Source: Ostreococcus lucimarinus (lineage: Eukaryota). Taken from it: 64,000 nt of DNA. Positions 29,636 through 36,223 of the stretch are shown in pieces (position 1 is the stretch's first letter; each line of letters begins with the position of its first letter). The DNA lies in assembly GCA_000092065.1 (NCBI GenBank), contig CP000591.1, one strand, 5' to 3'. The translations under genes and the position numbers were made by a program. The notes under the pieces are model-generated. The model saw only the letters and a list, made by a program, of their open reading frames with translations, had not been told where the DNA came from and did not search any database.

Positions 29636-30511
29636 CTAATTGTGGGTCAACATGTCCGCCGTCATATATCCAGCGTCGCCGAGACATCGCAGCGAAACGC
29701 CGCCGTCGCCGCGGACCTCGACCCGAGTGATCGAACCGTTGTACAGACCGATGCGCAACCACGCGTCCGGTGGAAGCTGAAGCGCGCGCAAAACGGAGTA
29801 CCGAATGACGTTACCGTGACAGACGACGATTTCGTGCTCTGGCGGCGGCGGCTTCGTCGCCGCCGACGACGGCGACGGCGCTCGGTGGAACGTCTCGCGA
29901 AATCCAGCCTCGATTCGCGGAGCGTCCGTGACGTGCACGTGCTCAGCTTGCCTCCAAGTGTCCGGTTCTGGACGCACGGGCGCGCCCTCGCGAATCAATT
30001 CGCTCGATTTACGCGTCGCGTTCGGAAACGCCTCTGCTGCTATGATATCCGCCGTCTCCTTCGCCCTCACCATCGTACTGTGCGTCATCTTCACCGACGC
30101 CGTCGACGGAATGAGTTCCTTCAATCGTCGCGCCGTGAAGCTCGCTTGTTTACGACCCAAATCCGTGAGTTTGCGCTCGCCGTCCGCCGCGGCGTCGGTT
30201 TCGGGCGTCTCCTCCGTCGCCTGGCCGTGTCGCACGAGCCAATACACTTTCGTCGGCGCCGCGGACGCCGCGACGGAGTCACTTGGAGTTGGATCACCAC
30301 CGCTCGAACGCCCGTCCCAGTTCCAGTCCCAGGACGTGCGCGCGCGCGCGTCCACGATGATTTTTCGTTTCGACAACCGCGCGGCTTCCGCAGCCGCGAC
30401 CGACGGCTCGGCGCGCGCGTGCGGCGAGACGGCGACGCCTTGGACGCCTAAACCGGCGCACACGGACGCGAACGCGATCGAGGCGAGACCGCGCGCGCGC
30501 GCGCTCGTCAT
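29636..30511 (-). CDS. PGAM5-like histidine-phosphatase-family Ser/Thr phosphatase with N-terminal TM anchor
   Basis: N-terminal anchor ASIAFASVCAGLG, WDWNWDGR motif (PGAM5 WDxNWD multimerisation motif), catalytic LVRHGQ (RHG), LTDLGRKQA and the C-terminal HGNVIRY. Confidence 0.7.
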   Translation of the reverse strand: MTSARARGLASIAFASVCAGLGVQGVAVSPHARAEPSVAAAEAARLSKRKIIVDARARTSWDWNWDGRSSGGDPTPSDSVAASAAPTKVYWLVRHGQATEETPETDAAADGERKLTDLGRKQASFTARRLKELIPSTASVKMTHSTMVRAKETADIIAAEAFPNATRKSSELIREGAPVRPEPDTWRQAEHVHVTDAPRIEAGFRETFHRAPSPSSAATKPPPPEHEIVVCHGNVIRYSVLRALQLPPDAWLRIGLYNGSITRVEVRGDGGVSLRCLGDAGYMTADMLTHN

Positions 30512-30626
30512 GGGCTCGTACGAGCGTCGACGAGTGCGGGCGGTGAAAAATTCAGAAAAATTCAACGTCGTGATATTAAAGGTTAAAGGTACAGGCGCGG
30601 CCGGACGCACGGGCTAAAGACTAGGA

Positions 30627-32858
30627 CTAACTGTCTTCAAACTTTTCCACGGATGCTGTCCTCTTGGCGTGCGCCAACTCCAGTACGACGTGGGAGACGC
30701 CCGAGACGCTCAAGTCTTCGTCGATGACTTGCGGGAGGAACTTTTCTCCGAGCAAGTCCATGAGTGCGCGGTTATCGGGGTCGGTGTTGTGCACGCGGAT
30801 GGTTTTCCCGACGTCCGCGTATCGCACGTACAGTGAATTCAGCGCGGCGAGGGAGGAGTAATCCTTGATCTTGCACTTGTCCATGTAAATCACGACGTCT
30901 CGTGGATCCGGTCCCATGCGGAACGAGTTTGTAAACTCGCGATCGGTGCCAAAGAAAAGCTCCCCGTAAACTTCGTACGCCACGCGCGTTGTGCCTTTTT
31001 CGCATCCAAATATTTCTTCTTCGCGACGAATGACTCGCAAAGACCCAGTGGAGTTGTCCCACGCGTAGAATAAGCACGCGACGACGACCCCGACGCCGAC
31101 TGCGATGGCCAAGTTGGTTCGCTCGGTGACGACGGTGACTAAGATGATGATGGCGGAATCTTTCCAGCGAATGCGATCGTTCGTATCGAACCAGAACTTG
31201 CGTAGACGACGACCGGCGTAATCTTCGCGCGTGCCATCCTCCTTGCGCCCAATAATCAATCCCTTAAGATCGCCGGACATGAGCGGCAAGCACGTCCAGT
31301 CAAAGGTGTAAATGACAATCATGAACAAAACTCCCGTCAACGCGGCGAGAGGGATAAGCTCGATCACCTTGGATGCGGCGACGATGAAAATCAAGAACAT
31401 AATCGAGGCAAAAGCAGTAGATAAGCGTCCGACGCCGCCAGATTTGACGTTGATCTGCGATTGCCCAATCATGGCGTCGCCGCCCATCGCCTTGAACATG
31501 CCAGACATCGTGTTCGCAATGCCTTGCGCGATGCACTCTTGCGTGAATCTACCGGTGGCATCCGAGGTGTCGTCCAAAATTTCGTCAACGCACTGAAGCG
31601 TGAGCACGGACTCGATCAAACCCACCGCGGCGAGGGAAAACGTGATCCCGAACACGTGCGCAAAGGACTTGCCTGTGAGGTTCACGTTAGGCGTGTGGTA
31701 CAAGGGAAAGTCAACCTTCACCGGTGCGGCATCACTCACGACAGGGGTGTCCGCGTGAATCAAAGGACGATTAATAGCATGTTCCAAGAGCAAGCACCAA
31801 AGAATGGCGACGAGAGATGACGGAAGAATCTTGGTGTACTTTGGCAAGAAGTGCACGATGGCCATCGAGGTAAAGACGTAAAACAACATGAGCCAAGTTG
31901 TTCCTTCATCGAGCGTGCGCCACACCAATGAATCCTCATAGCCACCGTGGATGTCGGCGTTTTTGTTTGCCGAGAACTCGGCGAGCGTGATGGTGCCGCT
32001 GGAGTCGGTGTCGACCTGCGTCTGCAAGGCGGCGACGTACGCGTTCAAGTCGCTCGTCGACAAATCCGGAAGTTCGACGGCGTAAACCGTCGTCACCTCC
32101 GCCGTGCTGATGAGCCCATCACGATTGCTGTCGAAAACATTAAACGCAGCTTGCCAGTCTTTCTCCTTGAACACCTCCAACTGAGCCTTGAAGATGATGA
32201 TGGCCAAGCCGTTGACGAAACCCGTCATGACGGTTTGCGGAATCAGCCGCATGAGTCGTCCAGCCTGCACGATGCCGAGGACGATCTGTAACACCCCGCA
32301 CAAGATCATAATCATGAACAACCACTCTAAGCGCGCTGCGTTGGCCTGATGTCGCAAGCTCTTGCACCCAGCCGCGGCCCCTGTGCACGACGCGATTTCC
32401 CCCCACTCCAGCAGCTTCGCCTGCGGCAGCAAACCGTCCGGTTCCATGATCCTCACCGCCACCACCGCCATCGCTCCCGCGGCGCCGCTCACCATCCCAG
32501 GTCGTCCACCGATCAAAGCGGTGATGATGCCCATGAAAAACGTCGCGTACAACCCCACGACCGGGTCCACGAGCGCGACGAAGGAAAACGCCACCGACTC
32601 GGGCACCTGCGCCACAGCCACCGTGAGCCCGCTCAGGATTTCGCTCTTAAATTTCAACGGCTCGGCGCGATAGTACTCGTACGACTCTCTGAAGTATTTC
32701 GGTCCGCTCAGGAACGTGTCCGAGAACCCGATGCGGTGCGTGAGCTTTTGCATTCCATTCATGGCGGCGACTTTCTCGGCGAGCGCTTTCTCGTGCGCCG
32801 CGTCCTCAAGCGCTTGCTTGGACGGCACGTGGTGCAGAGCATCACCGTCGGGCGTCAT
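30627..32858 (-). CDS. SulP/SLC26-family anion transporter with STAS domain and an inserted EF-hand pair
   Basis: SulP signature SGLTVAVAQVPESVAFSFVALVDPVVGLYATFF, a multi-TM core and a C-terminal STAS domain (VIYMDKCKIKDYSSLAALNSLYVRYADVGKTIRV). Two canonical 12-residue Ca-binding loops, DSNRDGLISTAE and DTDSSGTITLAE, sit in one loop. The track start is TTG at 32924; the first ATG is 32858. Confidence 0.85.
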   Translation of the reverse strand: MTPDGDALHHVPSKQALEDAAHEKALAEKVAAMNGMQKLTHRIGFSDTFLSGPKYFRESYEYYRAEPLKFKSEILSGLTVAVAQVPESVAFSFVALVDPVVGLYATFFMGIITALIGGRPGMVSGAAGAMAVVAVRIMEPDGLLPQAKLLEWGEIASCTGAAAGCKSLRHQANAARLEWLFMIMILCGVLQIVLGIVQAGRLMRLIPQTVMTGFVNGLAIIIFKAQLEVFKEKDWQAAFNVFDSNRDGLISTAEVTTVYAVELPDLSTSDLNAYVAALQTQVDTDSSGTITLAEFSANKNADIHGGYEDSLVWRTLDEGTTWLMLFYVFTSMAIVHFLPKYTKILPSSLVAILWCLLLEHAINRPLIHADTPVVSDAAPVKVDFPLYHTPNVNLTGKSFAHVFGITFSLAAVGLIESVLTLQCVDEILDDTSDATGRFTQECIAQGIANTMSGMFKAMGGDAMIGQSQINVKSGGVGRLSTAFASIMFLIFIVAASKVIELIPLAALTGVLFMIVIYTFDWTCLPLMSGDLKGLIIGRKEDGTREDYAGRRLRKFWFDTNDRIRWKDSAIIILVTVVTERTNLAIAVGVGVVVACLFYAWDNSTGSLRVIRREEEIFGCEKGTTRVAYEVYGELFFGTDREFTNSFRMGPDPRDVVIYMDKCKIKDYSSLAALNSLYVRYADVGKTIRVHNTDPDNRALMDLLGEKFLPQVIDEDLSVSGVSHVVLELAHAKRTASVEKFEDS

Positions 32859-33260
32859 GACGTCGCAATCCTCGCGAAATGTCGCGTTCGCGGCGTTCGA
32901 CGCGCGGGATAGTGCCGGGGACAAGATGCAGAGTGTTTTGGATAGCCGACGCGCGCGCCGTCGCTCGTCGCGAAACGCGCGGCGCGGACGGAGCGCAGCG
33001 CGGACGCGCGGGACGCGGAACGAAGAAACGGAGCGGACGCACGTCTCGAGTTTTCAGTTTTCGCGCCCTCACCGGCGCGCGTTTTAAAATTTCAACCTTC
33101 TACCGTTCGGAGCGAGCTAAACTCCCATCCGGACCGAGACGCGTAGACGCGTCGTCGTCGTCGTCGTCGTCGCGAACGAGCGAGCGAACGAGCAAACGCG
33201 CGACGAACGGTTTACGTCCCATCTCGAGTGTTTCACGTCAACCACCGTCCGAGCGGTCGT

Positions 33261-33802
33261 TTACGCGGCGCACTTCACGCGACCCGCCTTGTTGATGGCG
33301 GAGATGCGAGCGAGCGCGGCTTTCTACGAATCGAACGCGTTTCGCGCACCCGTCAGTCATCGGATTCCGTCGCCGTCGCGCGCGCGCACCGCCTCCATCG
33401 TCGCGCGCGTCCATCCCGCGCGAACGTCCTGTCCCGCGTGTTACGCGTGTCACGCGCGTTACGCGTCGCGTCCTCCTCGAAAACCCTAAACGATCGCACC
33501 TCCAAGTCCGGTCGCGCCTTCGCCGCGATCTTCACCTCGCCCGCCTGCGACTTGAACGACCCGCACAATTTCTTCCCATCGCACGTCGCCGCCGGCTTCC
33601 CCTTCCCGCCGTCGTGCTCGCGAATATCGATCGTCTTCGCGTTCGCCAGCCCGCTCGCGCGGAACGACACCTCCGCGGTCACGTTGCCCGGTTCCGCGCT
33701 GAATCGCGCGCCGTGTCCGCTCGTCGACGCGCGCGTGAACGCGTTGTGTTTCTTCGTCACCTGCCACAGGAAGTCATCGCTCGCGGGGACGTGGGAGATC
33801 AT
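33261..33802 (-). CDS. RPL28: 60S ribosomal protein eL28, exons 33802..33500 and 33323..33261
   Basis: MISHVPASDDFLWQVTKKHNAFTRASTSGHGARFSAEPGNVTAEVSFRASGLANAKT aligns to human RPL28 ([44 protein letters not shown]). The unspliced reading frame turns to low-complexity sequence after RPDLE. Splicing gives RPDLE|KAALARISAINKAGRVKCAA*, matching [20 protein letters not shown]. Confidence 0.75.
33324..33499 (-). other. spliceosomal intron (predicted, 176 nt, phase 0) containing a telobox motif
   Basis: Minus-strand donor GAG|GTGCGATCGTTTAGGGTTTTCGAG, branch-like GATGACTGACGGG, acceptor TTCGTAG|AAA. The 5' end of the intron carries TTTAGGGTTT (plus strand AAACCCTAAA at 33482..33491). Confidence 0.7.
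33482..33491 (+). promoter_or_regulatory. telobox motif AAACCCTAAA in eL28 first intron (candidate cis-element)
   Basis: Exact AAACCCTAAA lies on the plus strand (TTTAGGGTTT on the gene strand), 8 nt inside the intron of the ribosomal protein eL28 gene. In plants, telo-boxes in ribosomal-protein gene 5' regions and introns are bound by TRB proteins (established knowledge). Function here is an inference. Confidence 0.3.
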
Positions 33803-34759: not shown

Positions 34760-36223
34760 ATGGGATGCGCGAGCAGTAAGTCGTCGTCGCTGACGCTCGC
34801 GCGCGCGCGCTACGCGAGTTTACCCGGACCGGAACAAAAAACAATCGTGGGCGCGCTCGAGCGCGCGGCGACGAGTGATGCGGACGCCGCGAGGCTGTGC
34901 GCGGCGTTGGCGAACGTCGAGTGCGAACGCGCGGTCGACGTGTTTCAGCGCAGCGCGCTGGCGCACGAGACGTCGACGTCGGGGACTTTGGAACCGGTGC
35001 GGTGCGATTGCGAGATCGTCCCGGGGAGCGACGACGCCGAGCGGTGGCGTCGACGCGGATTGGAGTGCGTGAAGCGAGGGAAGCTCGCGGTGGTGCTCCT
35101 GGCGGGAGGTCAAGGGACGAGATTAGGAAGCGCGAATCCAAAAGGGATGTACGACATCGGGCTGCCGAGCAAGAAAACGCTGTTTGAACTGCAGGGCGAA
35201 CGGTTGGCCAAGCTCGGCGCGCTCGCGGGCGCGCGAGCGCCGACGTGGTACGTGATGACTTCGCCGTTTACGCACGACGCGACGGTGGCGTTTTTTAAGT
35301 CGCGCGATTACTTTGGTTTAAATGCTCGAGACGTGGTGTTCTTCAAGCAAGGCACGCTGCCGTGCTTCACCGAAGATGGGGAAATCATATTGAAATCTTT
35401 CGGCGAAGTCTCCGAGGCGCCCGACGGCAACGGCGGTATTTACGCCGCGATGGCGCGCGAAGGCGTCATCGCGGACATGCGGAAGCGGAAGATCGAACAC
35501 GTGTACGCGTACTGTGTGGATAACGCCCTGGTGCAAGTCGGCGATCCAACTTTTGTGGGGTGCTGCGTCGAGCGCGAATGCGAGGCGGGCGCCAAGGTGA
35601 TCGCCAAGGCGTACCCGACGGAGCCCGTGGGCGTGTTCGCGTGTCGCAAAAACGAAGCCACCGGGGCGAAGGAGTATCACGTCGTCGAATACAGCGAGAT
35701 TCCCGAATCTTTGGCCACGGCGAAGGACAAGAAAACGGGCGAGCTTAAATTCAACGCCGCCAACATCGCGTTGCATTATTTCTCATTTGACTTTTTGTCG
35801 AGGTGCTGCTTGGACATCGCGCTCCCGCACCACGTCGCGCGCAAAAAGATCCCGTACTTGGACGTGAACACGGGAAAAACTATCGAACCATCGTCGCCGA
35901 ACGGCATCAAGCTCGAGGCTTTCATCTTCGACACGTACAAGTACGCGAAATCCGTGTGCGTCGTCCGCGGCGACCGCGCGCTCGATTTCGCCCCCGTGAA
36001 GAACGCCGAGGGCGCGGGCAAGGATTCCCCCGACACCGCCCGCGAGGCGATATTATCCCTCCACGCGCGTTGGATTTTACAAGCCGGCGGCGTCATCGTC
36101 GACGAAAACGACGTCCCCGTCCCCACCGACCGCGCTCGGTGCGAAGTCTCTCCCGCCGTCTCCTACGCCGGCGAGTCCCTCGCGTCTCGCCTTCGCGTTC
36201 GCGTCGGCGGCGTCGTCCGATGA
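34760..36223 (+). CDS. UAP1: UDP-N-acetylglucosamine pyrophosphorylase (UAP1 family)
   Basis: LAVVLLAGGQGTRLGSANPKGMYDIGLPSKKTLFELQGERL reproduces the UAP1 nucleotide-binding signature. The rest is collinear with eukaryotic UAP1. The N-terminus MGCASSK is a myristoylation-type motif. Confidence 0.85.
   Translation: MGCASSKSSSLTLARARYASLPGPEQKTIVGALERAATSDADAARLCAALANVECERAVDVFQRSALAHETSTSGTLEPVRCDCEIVPGSDDAERWRRRGLECVKRGKLAVVLLAGGQGTRLGSANPKGMYDIGLPSKKTLFELQGERLAKLGALAGARAPTWYVMTSPFTHDATVAFFKSRDYFGLNARDVVFFKQGTLPCFTEDGEIILKSFGEVSEAPDGNGGIYAAMAREGVIADMRKRKIEHVYAYCVDNALVQVGDPTFVGCCVERECEAGAKVIAKAYPTEPVGVFACRKNEATGAKEYHVVEYSEIPESLATAKDKKTGELKFNAANIALHYFSFDFLSRCCLDIALPHHVARKKIPYLDVNTGKTIEPSSPNGIKLEAFIFDTYKYAKSVCVVRGDRALDFAPVKNAEGAGKDSPDTAREAILSLHARWILQAGGVIVDENDVPVPTDRARCEVSPAVSYAGESLASRLRVRVGGVVR

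Follow-up and report, generated by a model that had tools for sequence, protein, structure and literature searches.

A canonical EF-hand pair inserted between TM5 and TM6 of a SulP/SLC26 transporter from Ostreococcus lucimarinus, predicted to project from its gate domain on the side away from the cytosol

The window analysed here, a stretch of 64,000 nucleotides from contig CP000591.1 of Ostreococcus lucimarinus, carries on its minus strand a complete and intronless gene for a SulP/SLC26-family anion transporter, one loop of which is enlarged by a pair of EF-hands. The minus-strand open reading frame covers positions 30627..32924 when opened at a TTG codon, and its first ATG at 32858 yields a product of 743 amino acids which is also found in public gene calls, identical calls having been made on marine metagenome contigs. 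Both the in-frame extension initiated at the upstream TTG and the longer O. tauri gene model were considered with regard to an N-terminal transit peptide, and neither was found to be conserved across species. Scans of the window for tRNA genes and Rfam families yielded no matches. The features are given below, in the order in which they occur in the protein.

30627..32858, minus strand: complete, intronless coding sequence of the SulP/SLC26-family anion transporter, 743 aa plus stop (open reading frame listing and translation)
32358..32444, minus strand: TM3-TM4 outer loop of the core domain (aa 139-167), carrying a clade-specific insert with C158 and C165
32169..32237, minus strand: TM5, the helix with which the gate/scaffold domain begins, last residues AQLEVF (aa 208-230; AlphaFold helix)
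31905..32168, minus strand: TM5-TM6 loop insert of 88 aa (aa 231-318; split of the Sulfate_transp match)
32073..32156, minus strand: EF-hand 1, helix-loop-helix (aa 235-262; PS00018, Pfam and model)
31968..32057, minus strand: EF-hand 2, helix-loop-helix (aa 268-297; PS00018 and model)
31836..31904, minus strand: TM6, GTTWLMLFYVFTSMAIVHFLPKY (aa 319-341; AlphaFold helix)
31167..31274, minus strand: TM12-TM13 cytosolic loop insert, basic and predicted to be disordered, with RRLRKFWFDTNDRIR (aa 529-564)
30714..31049, minus strand: probable C-terminal STAS domain, cytosolic (aa ~604-715; SLC26Dg STAS alignment and model fold)

The host is a 14-TM SulP/SLC26 protein of the prokaryote-like SLC26Dg type, with a probable STAS domain. 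The Pfam family Sulfate_transp (PF00916) was identified in the 743-residue protein with an E-value of 2.7e-43 and 148.6 bits as compared to a cut-off of 23.2, the match being made up of two stretches between which, at profile position 134, the insert intervenes, while the sulP model TIGR00815 reached 167.9 bits and thereby stayed under its subfamily cut-off of 380. The AlphaFold model (pLDDT 75.5) revealed 14 TM segments in a 7+7 inverted-repeat arrangement of the UraA type, within which the half-helices TM3 and TM10 each consist of a strand and a short helix (124/129-138 and 462/464-472), and structural comparison using Foldseek gave a TM-score of 0.85 against the transmembrane domain of SLC26Dg (5iof), with all of the top matches being SLC26 structures. 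The C-terminal STAS domain, which had already been proposed in the first-pass annotation, is supported by alignment to the STAS domain of SLC26Dg (i-E 1.5e-5) and by an alpha/beta fold at aa 608-712 of the model; the Pfam STAS profile scored 17.3 bits here, below its cut-off of 22.6, and precomputed PF01740 matches exist for close relatives. The TM12-TM13 insert, basic with 10 K/R among its 36 residues, was modelled with a pLDDT below 50 and lacks a counterpart between SLC26Dg residues 349 and 356.

Ranking of the homologues placed SLC26Dg, the fumarate transporter of Deinococcus geothermalis (PDB 5da0, 5iof), at the top (5da0, E 2.7e-70), followed by BicA (1.9e-20) and plant SULTR4;1 (3.4e-7), and the NCBIfam models for DauA and BicA gave scores far short of their equivalog cut-offs. 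By sequence similarity SLC26Dg is the closest relative with a structure, and the sulfate or bicarbonate uptake considered earlier for this transporter is not established by such a ranking. With SLC26Dg and bacterial SulP proteins of the DauA type the algal protein shares the 14-TM, 7+7 architecture, the half-helices TM3 and TM10, a conserved AMIGQS motif at TM10 and, in all probability, the C-terminal STAS domain. SLC26Dg differs in that only a few residues separate its TM5 from its TM6 and in that it possesses neither the Cys-bearing insert between TM3 and TM4 nor the basic TM12-TM13 insert.

A canonical EF-hand pair resembling a calmodulin lobe is present in the SulP loop, as had been noticed on first inspection of the DNA. 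Loop 1, DSNRDGLISTAE, comprises aa 243-254 (numbering from the ATG; window 32097-32132) and loop 2, DTDSSGTITLAE, comprises aa 283-294 (window 31977-32012), so that both fall inside 31965-32144; loop 2 starts 40 residues after the start of loop 1, which leaves a spacer of 28 residues. Both fit the PROSITE pattern PS00018, with ligands at positions 1, 3, 5 and 12, glycine at position 6 and a hydrophobic residue at position 8. Upon shuffling of the whole protein 20,000 times one PS00018 match was obtained in 0.2% of the shuffled sequences and two matches in none. The check by EF-hand HMMs proposed in the first-pass annotation came out in favour of the pair, as EF-hand_1 (29.4 bits, cut-off 25.4), EF-hand_5 (28.6, cut-off 25.9) and EF-hand_6 (27.3, cut-off 25) all passed, with the pair model EF-hand_7 remaining slightly under its cut-off of 30 (27.2 bits, E 5e-6), and a search of the segment against the PDB matched calmodulin N-lobes and chains with E-values from 4.7e-9 to 1e-6. 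In the AlphaFold model the two helices and the short strand are located at 235-242, 252-262 and 249-251 in EF-hand 1 and at 268-282, 292-297 and 289-291 in EF-hand 2. Each strand covers positions 7-9 of its loop, as expected of two helix-loop-helix units that pair by way of an antiparallel beta bridge, and the strands were modelled with a pLDDT of 82-87. Superposition of the modelled insert on the EF-hand pairs of Ca2+-calmodulin, calcineurin B, CDPK3 and MCFD2 gave rmsd values of 1.0-2.0 A over 62-64 residues, and its structural matches include the ER-luminal EF-hand proteins MCFD2 and FKBP14. The match is far above chance as judged from the shuffles, the HMMs and the fold, which together rule out chance motifs as its source.

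The hydrophobic blocks that were seen on either side of the EF pair are TM5 and TM6. Here, TM5 is alignable to SLC26Dg up to residue ~148-154 and to prestin up to residue 227, and TM6 to SLC26Dg from residue 149 on, which places the insertion point between SLC26Dg residues ~148 and 154, where SLC26Dg is without a counterpart. Following the chain, the insert consists of a beta-neck, EF-hand 1, a linker, EF-hand 2 and a conserved return segment of the form IHxGxxExxxWRTL, and it is net acidic (16 D/E versus 5 K/R). Helices TM5-7 are part of the gate domain (PMC11078650), and both alignment and model place the EF insert in this gate (scaffold) domain and not in the transport core; the first-pass idea of a Ca2+ sensor fused into the transport domain is to be corrected in this respect.

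As to the side of the membrane, five TM segments precede the insert in the model and nine follow it, before the cytosolic STAS domain is reached. In the alignment to prestin, residue 228 of the algal protein corresponds to prestin 227 and residue 241 to prestin 243, the start of the insert thus corresponding to prestin residue ~236. Cysteine scanning of prestin revealed residues 149 and 236 to be modifiable only from the outside and residues 202 and 276 only from the inside, and the glycosylated residues of prestin are N163 and N166 (PMC3988826). The charges of the algal loops are distributed asymmetrically, with 14 K/R in 71 aa for the inside loops as compared to 9 K/R in 159 aa and a net charge of -15 for the outside loops, and N393 is the sole N-X-S/T sequon located in a predicted outer loop. 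Paralogous eukaryotic SulPs (P0377) carry Cys-rich inserts with N-glycosylation sequons in their TM5-TM6 loop, and sequons also occur within degenerate EF loops of relatives. From homology, TM count and loop charge (positive-inside rule) we infer that the insert loop is extracytoplasmic, opposing the cytosolic N-terminus and STAS domain.

The second enlarged loop of the outer face connects TM3 and TM4 and belongs to the core domain. Residues 143-176 of the algal protein fall between SLC26Dg residues 93 and 94, hence the insert is without a counterpart in SLC26Dg, and it is also missing from bacterial homologues. Among the 24 members of the EF-insert family that cover this loop, 23 possess both the insert and its Cys pair, the exception being Cymbomonas P0041, and C158 and C165 probably brace the loop by a disulfide. 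The homologous loop of prestin is extracellular and glycosylated (PMC3988826, PMC13055199). In mammalian SLC26A5 (prestin) and SLC26A4 (pendrin) the sites of the two algal inserts are represented on the outer face by the TM3-TM4 'EC-loop' and by the TM5-TM5b/TM6 region; the EC-loop influences function, contacts the TM5-TM5b/TM6 region in models and simulations and, in modelled and simulated prestin, touches the TM5-TM5b loop (PMC13055199). The mammalian outer loops are short, glycosylated and free of a Ca2+-binding motif, in which they are unlike the algal insert.

Comparison across homologues, which had been suggested as a check for lineage specificity, revealed the EF insert in all of the ~26 members of one clade, made up of Ostreococcus relatives, Pycnococcus, Cymbomonas and the stramenopile Triparma, whereas sister eukaryotic and bacterial SulPs are without it, and the Cys-pair insert between TM3 and TM4 co-occurs with it in the same clade. 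This distribution shows the EF insert to have a single origin. Conservation within the membrane domain is lowest in the insert (27-73% identity as compared to 56-97%), and across the Ostreococcus clade all ligand positions of both loops are strictly kept. In the 26 family members loop 2 has retained E12 in every case, D/N3 in 25 and D1 in 24; loop 1 was lost in Pycnococcus and others, and a sister lineage (P0019-P0028), which we infer to be Bathycoccus-like, has kept the insert and lost loop ligands in both EF-hands. An insert-bearing transcript exists (MMETSP, P0043). Exhaustive search of 1.84 billion representatives identified ~7 clusters at 50% identity which span TM5, the EF pair and TM6, the matches beyond these first ~7 being dominated by multi-EF-hand proteins, and a profile of TM5, insert and TM6 run against a word-indexed database yielded nothing beyond short fragments and EF-hand proteins of a generic kind, with no new full-length architecture among them.

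The explanation favoured here, for which a probability of roughly 0.5 is assumed, is that the pair forms a Ca2+-stabilised structural cap, external or luminal, on the gate domain, which in seawater would be constitutively loaded. According to this, a small clade of algae would owe to its ancestor the gain of a calmodulin-lobe-like EF pair between TM5 and TM6 in the gate domain, and this loop would face the seawater if the protein resides in the plasma membrane and an organelle lumen otherwise. Since seawater contains ~10 mM Ca2+, the two canonical loops would most likely bind the ion constitutively, and the loaded pair would serve as a structural cap by which the gate domain is covered on its outer face. 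In the same clade the Cys-pair insert would have been gained in the TM3-TM4 outer loop of the mobile core, against which the cap probably packs. A structural role is in keeping with the fact that every clade member has kept the insert, yet the sister lineage has lost loop ligands in both EF-hands, and further with the loss of loop 1 in Pycnococcus and others and with the low conservation of the insert. However, the strict conservation of Ca2+ ligands in the Ostreococcus clade would fit a regulatory sensor as well, the ligand loss of the sister lineage says nothing of the role of an intact pair, and the pair could act as a true sensor if the protein resided in an internal membrane and the Ca2+ of the lumen varied.

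The last point leads over to a trans-side Ca2+ sensor with sub-mM to mM affinity, by which luminal or external Ca2+ would gate anion transport in a manner comparable to STIM1, the assumption being that Ca2+ loading alters the way in which the gate-domain cap interacts with the TM3-4 loop on the elevator (core) domain. This is considered rather unlikely. The topological evidence for it is identical to that for an outer cap, the ligands are strictly kept in the Ostreococcus clade with E12 of loop 2 found throughout the family, the two inserts co-occur on domains which move against each other, the equivalent prestin loops interact and affect function (PMC13055199), and luminal EF pairs do exist (MCFD2, FKBP14); on the other hand the ~10 mM Ca2+ at a marine plasma membrane would saturate ordinary EF-hands, and the sister lineage has kept the domain without the ligands. 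An extended form of the sensor, which would make this protein the first SLC26/SulP under trans-side Ca2+ control, assumes that the Ca2+-loaded gate cap clamps or releases the disulfide-braced TM3-TM4 core loop, thereby setting the elevator movement and coupling anion flux to external or store Ca2+ in picoalgae of worldwide abundance, and it is to be taken as speculative and unlikely. That the EF pair resides on the cytosolic side and couples Ca2+ signals to anion uptake, the link to Ca2+ signalling drawn in the first-pass annotation, would be suggested by the canonical calmodulin-like loops, which are typical of cytosolic sensors, and by the known Ca2+/calmodulin regulation of the SLC26 member prestin, which proceeds by calmodulin binding at the cytosolic STAS region (PMC6499820). 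This is highly improbable, as the loop connects TM5 with TM6 in a protein that has 14 TM segments and exposes its N-terminus and its STAS domain to the cytosol, as the homologous prestin position is reachable only from outside, with which the loop-charge asymmetry agrees, and as the Cys-pair and sequon inserts of relatives in the same and neighbouring loops point outward. The predicted placement of the insert on the non-cytosolic face thus renders a sensor of cytosolic Ca2+ signals unlikely and a Ca2+-stabilised outer cap more likely than such a sensor.

Degenerate loops in the inserts of relatives and the fact that no other part of the membrane domain evolves as fast as the insert would also be expected if the EF pair were an evolutionary relic, i.e., a domesticated spacer which neither needs nor binds Ca2+ and merely represents a folded loop extension. 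Such a relic is very improbable, since both loops are fully canonical (D1, D/N3, D/S5, G6, I8, E12) in the protein of the window and its closest relatives, and the retention of ligands while the non-ligand positions vary is a signature of selection for Ca2+ binding. The probability that the EF segment is an artefact, in the form of a mistranslated intron or an assembly chimera, is close to nil: the open reading frame runs on in frame without a break, many independent contigs encode identical products, other genera share the insert as protein sequence at identities down to 27%, and the P0043 transcript carries it, and the artefact was rejected on the continuous frame, the cross-genus conservation and the transcript.

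EF-hand pairs with an extracytoplasmic location are found in the EC domain of SPARC/BM-40 and in MCFD2, where they are Ca2+-stabilised structural elements, and in the luminal EF-SAM domain of STIM1, which is a low-affinity store sensor. SPARC, STIM1, MCFD2 and FKBP14 all hold their EF pairs outside the cytosol, as proposed for the algal insert, but in none of them is the pair known to form part of a loop of a polytopic secondary transporter, and the likeness is that of the generic EF-hand fold only. EF-hands fused to membrane transport proteins are found in the Ca2+-regulated mitochondrial carriers Aralar/citrin and SCaMC/APC, and in EF-hand-bearing channels and oxidases such as TPC1 and RBOH/NOX5, where they confer direct control by Ca2+ and make a separate sensor dispensable. 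The EF-hands of these proteins are terminal or inter-domain in position and face the cytosol or the intermembrane space, unlike the pair of the algal SulP, which is placed within a loop between two TM segments and, as predicted, on the trans side.

The statement of the first-pass annotation that EF-hands are not known in SulP/SLC26 transporters holds for the literature, as a search on EF-hands in SLC26/SulP proteins found no publication on the fusion, its topology or its function, and does not hold for the public databases, in which automatic annotation has already marked the fusion. There, orthologues of the same architecture, which carry the EF pair at the identical site, are listed from O. 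tauri (CEF99742.1/XP_022840005.1, 89% identity) as 'EF-Hand 1, calcium-binding site', from Cymbomonas tetramitiformis (CYMTET_3732, ~52% identity) as 'EF-hand domain-containing protein' and from Triparma columacea (GMI44972.1, ~54% identity) under the UniRef name 'Calmodulin', all of these names resulting from automatic domain transfer only. Regulation of SLC26/SulP proteins is thought to run through the cytosolic STAS domain, and a folded domain that binds Ca2+ and protrudes from an outer loop, where the scaffold meets the moving transport domain, would mean that elevator-type carriers can be regulated or stabilised by a principle new to them. It would also provide structural studies of the outward-facing side with a natural handle, and the orthologues with intact, half-degenerate and fully degenerate EF loops form a ready-made comparative experiment. 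If the substrate were a nutrient or inorganic-carbon anion, a Ca2+ dependence would bear on the physiology of picoplankton. The architecture is rare, yet it occurs in Ostreococcus and Bathycoccus-like picoalgae, which dominate many marine metagenomes, and the exact protein and close variants of it were found on hundreds of contigs.

The SulP/SLC26 transporter encoded on the minus strand at 30627-32858 carries, between its fifth and sixth transmembrane segments (TM5 and TM6), an insert of 88 residues (aa 231-318) which harbors a pair of EF hands. Residues are numbered from the ATG at 32858.

Features of the transporter gene and its neighbours
34760-36223, plus strand: UDPGP-family gene, a neighbour
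33353-33800 region: ribosomal protein L28e gene, upstream of the SulP gene
32358-32444, minus strand, aa 139-167: clade-specific TM3-TM4 outer-loop insert with a Cys pair (Cys loop)
aa 208-230, minus strand: TM5, ending ...GFVNGLAIIIFKAQLEVF, flanking the EF pair
32097-32132, minus strand, aa 243-254: EF loop 1, DSNRDGLISTAE, PS00018 match
31977-32012, minus strand, aa 283-294: EF loop 2, DTDSSGTITLAE, PS00018 match
aa 319-341, minus strand: TM6, WLMLFYVFTSMAIVHF, flanking the EF pair
31167-31274, minus strand, aa 529-564: third insert, in the TM12-TM13 cytosolic loop, containing RRLRKFWFDTNDRIRW
29636-30610, minus strand: His_Phos_1 phosphatase-family gene, immediately downstream of the SulP gene

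The first-pass annotation had described two textbook Ca2+ loops within a SulP protein, a description which holds, the hydrophobic blocks quoted on either side being TM5 and TM6. Both loops match PROSITE PS00018, and of 20,000 shuffled versions of the protein 0.2% contained one match and none contained two. EF-hand HMMs do score the segment, as EF-hand_1 (29.4, curated cut-off 25.4), EF-hand_5 (28.6, 25.9) and EF-hand_6 (27.3, 25) of Pfam were all passed, while the Pfam pair model EF-hand_7 lies slightly under its cut-off (27.2 vs 30; E 5e-6). Searched against PDB sequences, the segment matched calmodulin N-lobes over ~64 residues with E down to 4.7e-9. Within the AlphaFold model the insert comprises a two-stranded neck (231-233 and 311-313), the helices of EF-hand 1 (235-242 and 252-262) and EF-hand 2 (268-282 and 292-297) and short strands at 249-251 and 289-291 (pLDDT 82-87), i.e., positions 7-9 of each EF loop, whereby a short beta bridge between the loops is a hallmark of paired EF hands. 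A separate model of aa 205-345 (pLDDT 81.5) reproduced this fold and superposes on Ca2+-loaded calmodulin lobes, calcineurin B, the CDPK3 Ca-binding domain and the ER-luminal MCFD2 (rmsd 1.0-2.0 Å, 62-64 residues, 30-35% identity). An artefact origin of the insert is excluded for practical purposes.

Assignment of the host protein rests on Pfam Sulfate_transp (E 2.7e-43), matched in two stretches broken at profile position 134, and on SLC26Dg, a prokaryotic fumarate transporter, as best solved relative (5da0, E 2.7e-70), followed by BicA (1.9e-20), prestin (2e-13) and plant SULTR4;1 (3.4e-7). The AlphaFold model, built from a 31-sequence alignment (pLDDT 75.5, pTM 0.67), possesses 14 TM segments, with TM3 and TM10 as strand-plus-half-helix, and a C-terminal alpha/beta domain; Foldseek aligned it with the membrane domain of SLC26Dg (TM-score 0.85), every top match being an SLC26 structure. 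Pfam STAS remained sub-threshold (17.3 vs 22.6 bits), and the same region aligns to the SLC26Dg STAS domain (i-E 1.5e-5). As the NCBIfam DauA and BicA scores fall far under their equivalog cut-offs, the sulfate or bicarbonate uptake proposed in the first-pass annotation is favoured no more than that of dicarboxylates. Three insertions set the algal protein apart from SLC26Dg, aa 143-176 (TM3-TM4), ~231-318 (TM5-TM6), which is the EF pair, and 529-568 (TM12-TM13).

In SLC26 proteins the N-terminus and the STAS domain are both cytosolic and linked by 14 TMs; the mobile core is built from TM1-4 plus TM8-11, the gate or scaffold from TM5-7 plus TM12-14 (PMC11078650). Following five TMs, the EF loop would hence locate to the trans side as part of the gate domain, outside the transport core in which it had been placed earlier. 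Prestin cysteines at 104, 149, 236, 331, 389, 431 and 485 react with external reagents only and those at 202, 276, 359, 408 and 465 with internal reagents only, and the TM3-4 loop is glycosylated at N163 and N166 (PMC3988826). HMMER alignments pair aa 228 with prestin 227 and aa 241 with prestin 243, so that the insert starts at the externally accessible position 236. Predicted inside loops hold 14 K/R per 71 residues and outside loops 9 per 159 (net charge -15), the TM12-13 insert being strongly basic, a distribution that agrees with an outward insert. The conserved Cys pair of the co-acquired TM3-4 insert, Cys-rich inserts with N-glycosylation sequons at this TM5-6 site in related SulPs lacking EF hands, and sequon gain in degenerate EF loops hint in the same direction. 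Judged from homology and loop charge, the outward orientation is given a probability of about 0.85.

An exhaustive HMMER scan of aa 200-345 against 1.84 billion 50%-identity representatives found only ~7 clusters spanning TM5, EF pair and TM6, the remaining matches being generic multi-EF-hand proteins or SulPs aligned through helices only. The window comes from Ostreococcus. The family amounts to ~43 clusters at 90% identity and includes CEF99742.1/XP_022840005.1, the orthologue in O. tauri, which is 89% identical and bears the automatic name 'EF-Hand 1, calcium-binding site', as well as Pycnococcus provasolii, Cymbomonas tetramitiformis ('EF-hand domain-containing protein'), the stramenopile Triparma columacea (UniRef name 'Calmodulin') and one MMETSP transcript. 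In a neighbour-joining tree restricted to TM columns all insert-bearing sequences form one clade, with insert-less eukaryotic SulPs (Pelagomonas, P0044) as sister and marine bacterial SulPs next out. Triparma columacea (Bolidophyceae; P0038/P0188 cluster, ~54% identity) nests within this otherwise green-algal clade, a placement suggestive of transfer from one algal lineage to another, or else of an earlier origin followed by losses.

The insert is the least conserved stretch of the membrane domain (27-73% vs 56-97% identity). Both EF loops are canonical in the Ostreococcus-like group, and loop 2 alone is retained in Pycnococcus and several others. Across the family the ligands of loop 2 are almost invariant, with E12 in 26/26, D1 in 24/26 and D/N3 in 25/26 sequences. 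The sister group of the Ostreococcus-like sequences (P0019-P0028), which we infer to be Bathycoccus-like from its GC of 41-47% and the same upstream L28e gene, keeps the whole insert with zero PS00018 matches in either loop. In degenerate loops (P0019-P0026, P0039/P0040) N-X-S/T sequons (DADNSTT, NGNSTT, MNGT) replace the Gly6 region; glycosylation may have taken over from Ca2+ ligation there, which would be in keeping with a site in a lumen or outside the cell.

These data are best explained if the EF pair caps the gate domain on its outer or luminal side and is stabilised by Ca2+. Seawater contains ~10 mM Ca2+, which would keep ordinary EF hands at the plasma membrane occupied at all times; a trans-side Ca2+ sensor, the main rival, would presuppose either residence in an internal membrane or an affinity that is unusually low and appears rather unlikely, and trans-side Ca2+ gating of the elevator transporter is judged unlikely. 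Since the domain is kept with degenerate ligands in the sister lineage, its fold and not Ca2+ switching would be the conserved function. A relic lacking Ca2+ binding is very improbable, as ligand positions are selectively conserved across the Ostreococcus clade. A cytosolic Ca2+ sensor, as would couple Ca signalling to uptake along the lines of the first-pass annotation, is very improbable, the predicted topology placing the EF loop opposite the cytosolic STAS domain. Any cytosolic Ca2+ input would more plausibly enter through the TM12-TM13 insert, which is basic, predicted disordered (pLDDT <50) and contains the basic-amphipathic RRLRKFWFDTNDRIRW, resembling calmodulin-binding motifs.

The proposed cap may also meet the Cys loop on the core domain. 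Models and simulations of non-mammalian prestins show the TM3-4 'EC-loop', which is important for function, touching the TM5-TM5b loop (PMC13055199), and by analogy cap and Cys loop could plausibly touch where core and gate adjoin. Almost every member with the EF insert also has the Cys loop, which is absent from SLC26Dg, bacterial homologues and insert-less eukaryotic relatives; its conserved Cys pair (C-x7-C here, CxxC as CAGC, CVGC or CLGC in other members) may make it a disulfide-braced partner of the cap.

Both parts, SulP/SLC26 transporter and EF pair, are textbook families, and automatic annotation had already assigned the EF-hand label to orthologues. A literature search returned no paper describing their combination, nor the outer-loop position in the SLC26 fold. 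A rare, unusual architecture, whose function we infer, is found in ecologically dominant picoalgae. The TM5-TM6 outer loop, after which a conserved W..L.EG.TW motif stands, seems especially prone to lineage-specific ectodomain insertions, as two related eukaryotic SulPs without EF hands (P0377 and P0359) carry other inserts at this site; that of P0377 is Cys-rich and includes three N-X-T sequons. In the closest marine gammaproteobacterial SulPs (P0081 and P0099; Spongiibacteraceae, Halieaceae) this loop is already extended by ~20 aa (GEPGWLSGTFLEGSVIDIAWLEG), in which the EF motif is absent.

The L28e-SulP adjacency is kept in a Bathycoccus-like contig (L007), supporting orthology, and searches for tRNA and Rfam families gave zero matches across the whole window. 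Counted from a TTG the open reading frame covers 30627..32924, and from the first ATG it yields 743 aa; public gene calls recover the identical protein from numerous marine contigs that are independent of one another. Translation, and with it any targeting peptide, may begin at this ATG or further 5': at 32859-32924 (minus strand) the frame is open for 22 codons 5' of the ATG, back to the TTG (LSPALSRASNAANATFREDCDV). A 765-aa form is used by some metagenome gene calls (P0124, P0134), and the N-terminal extension varies between O. tauri models (752 vs 789 aa).
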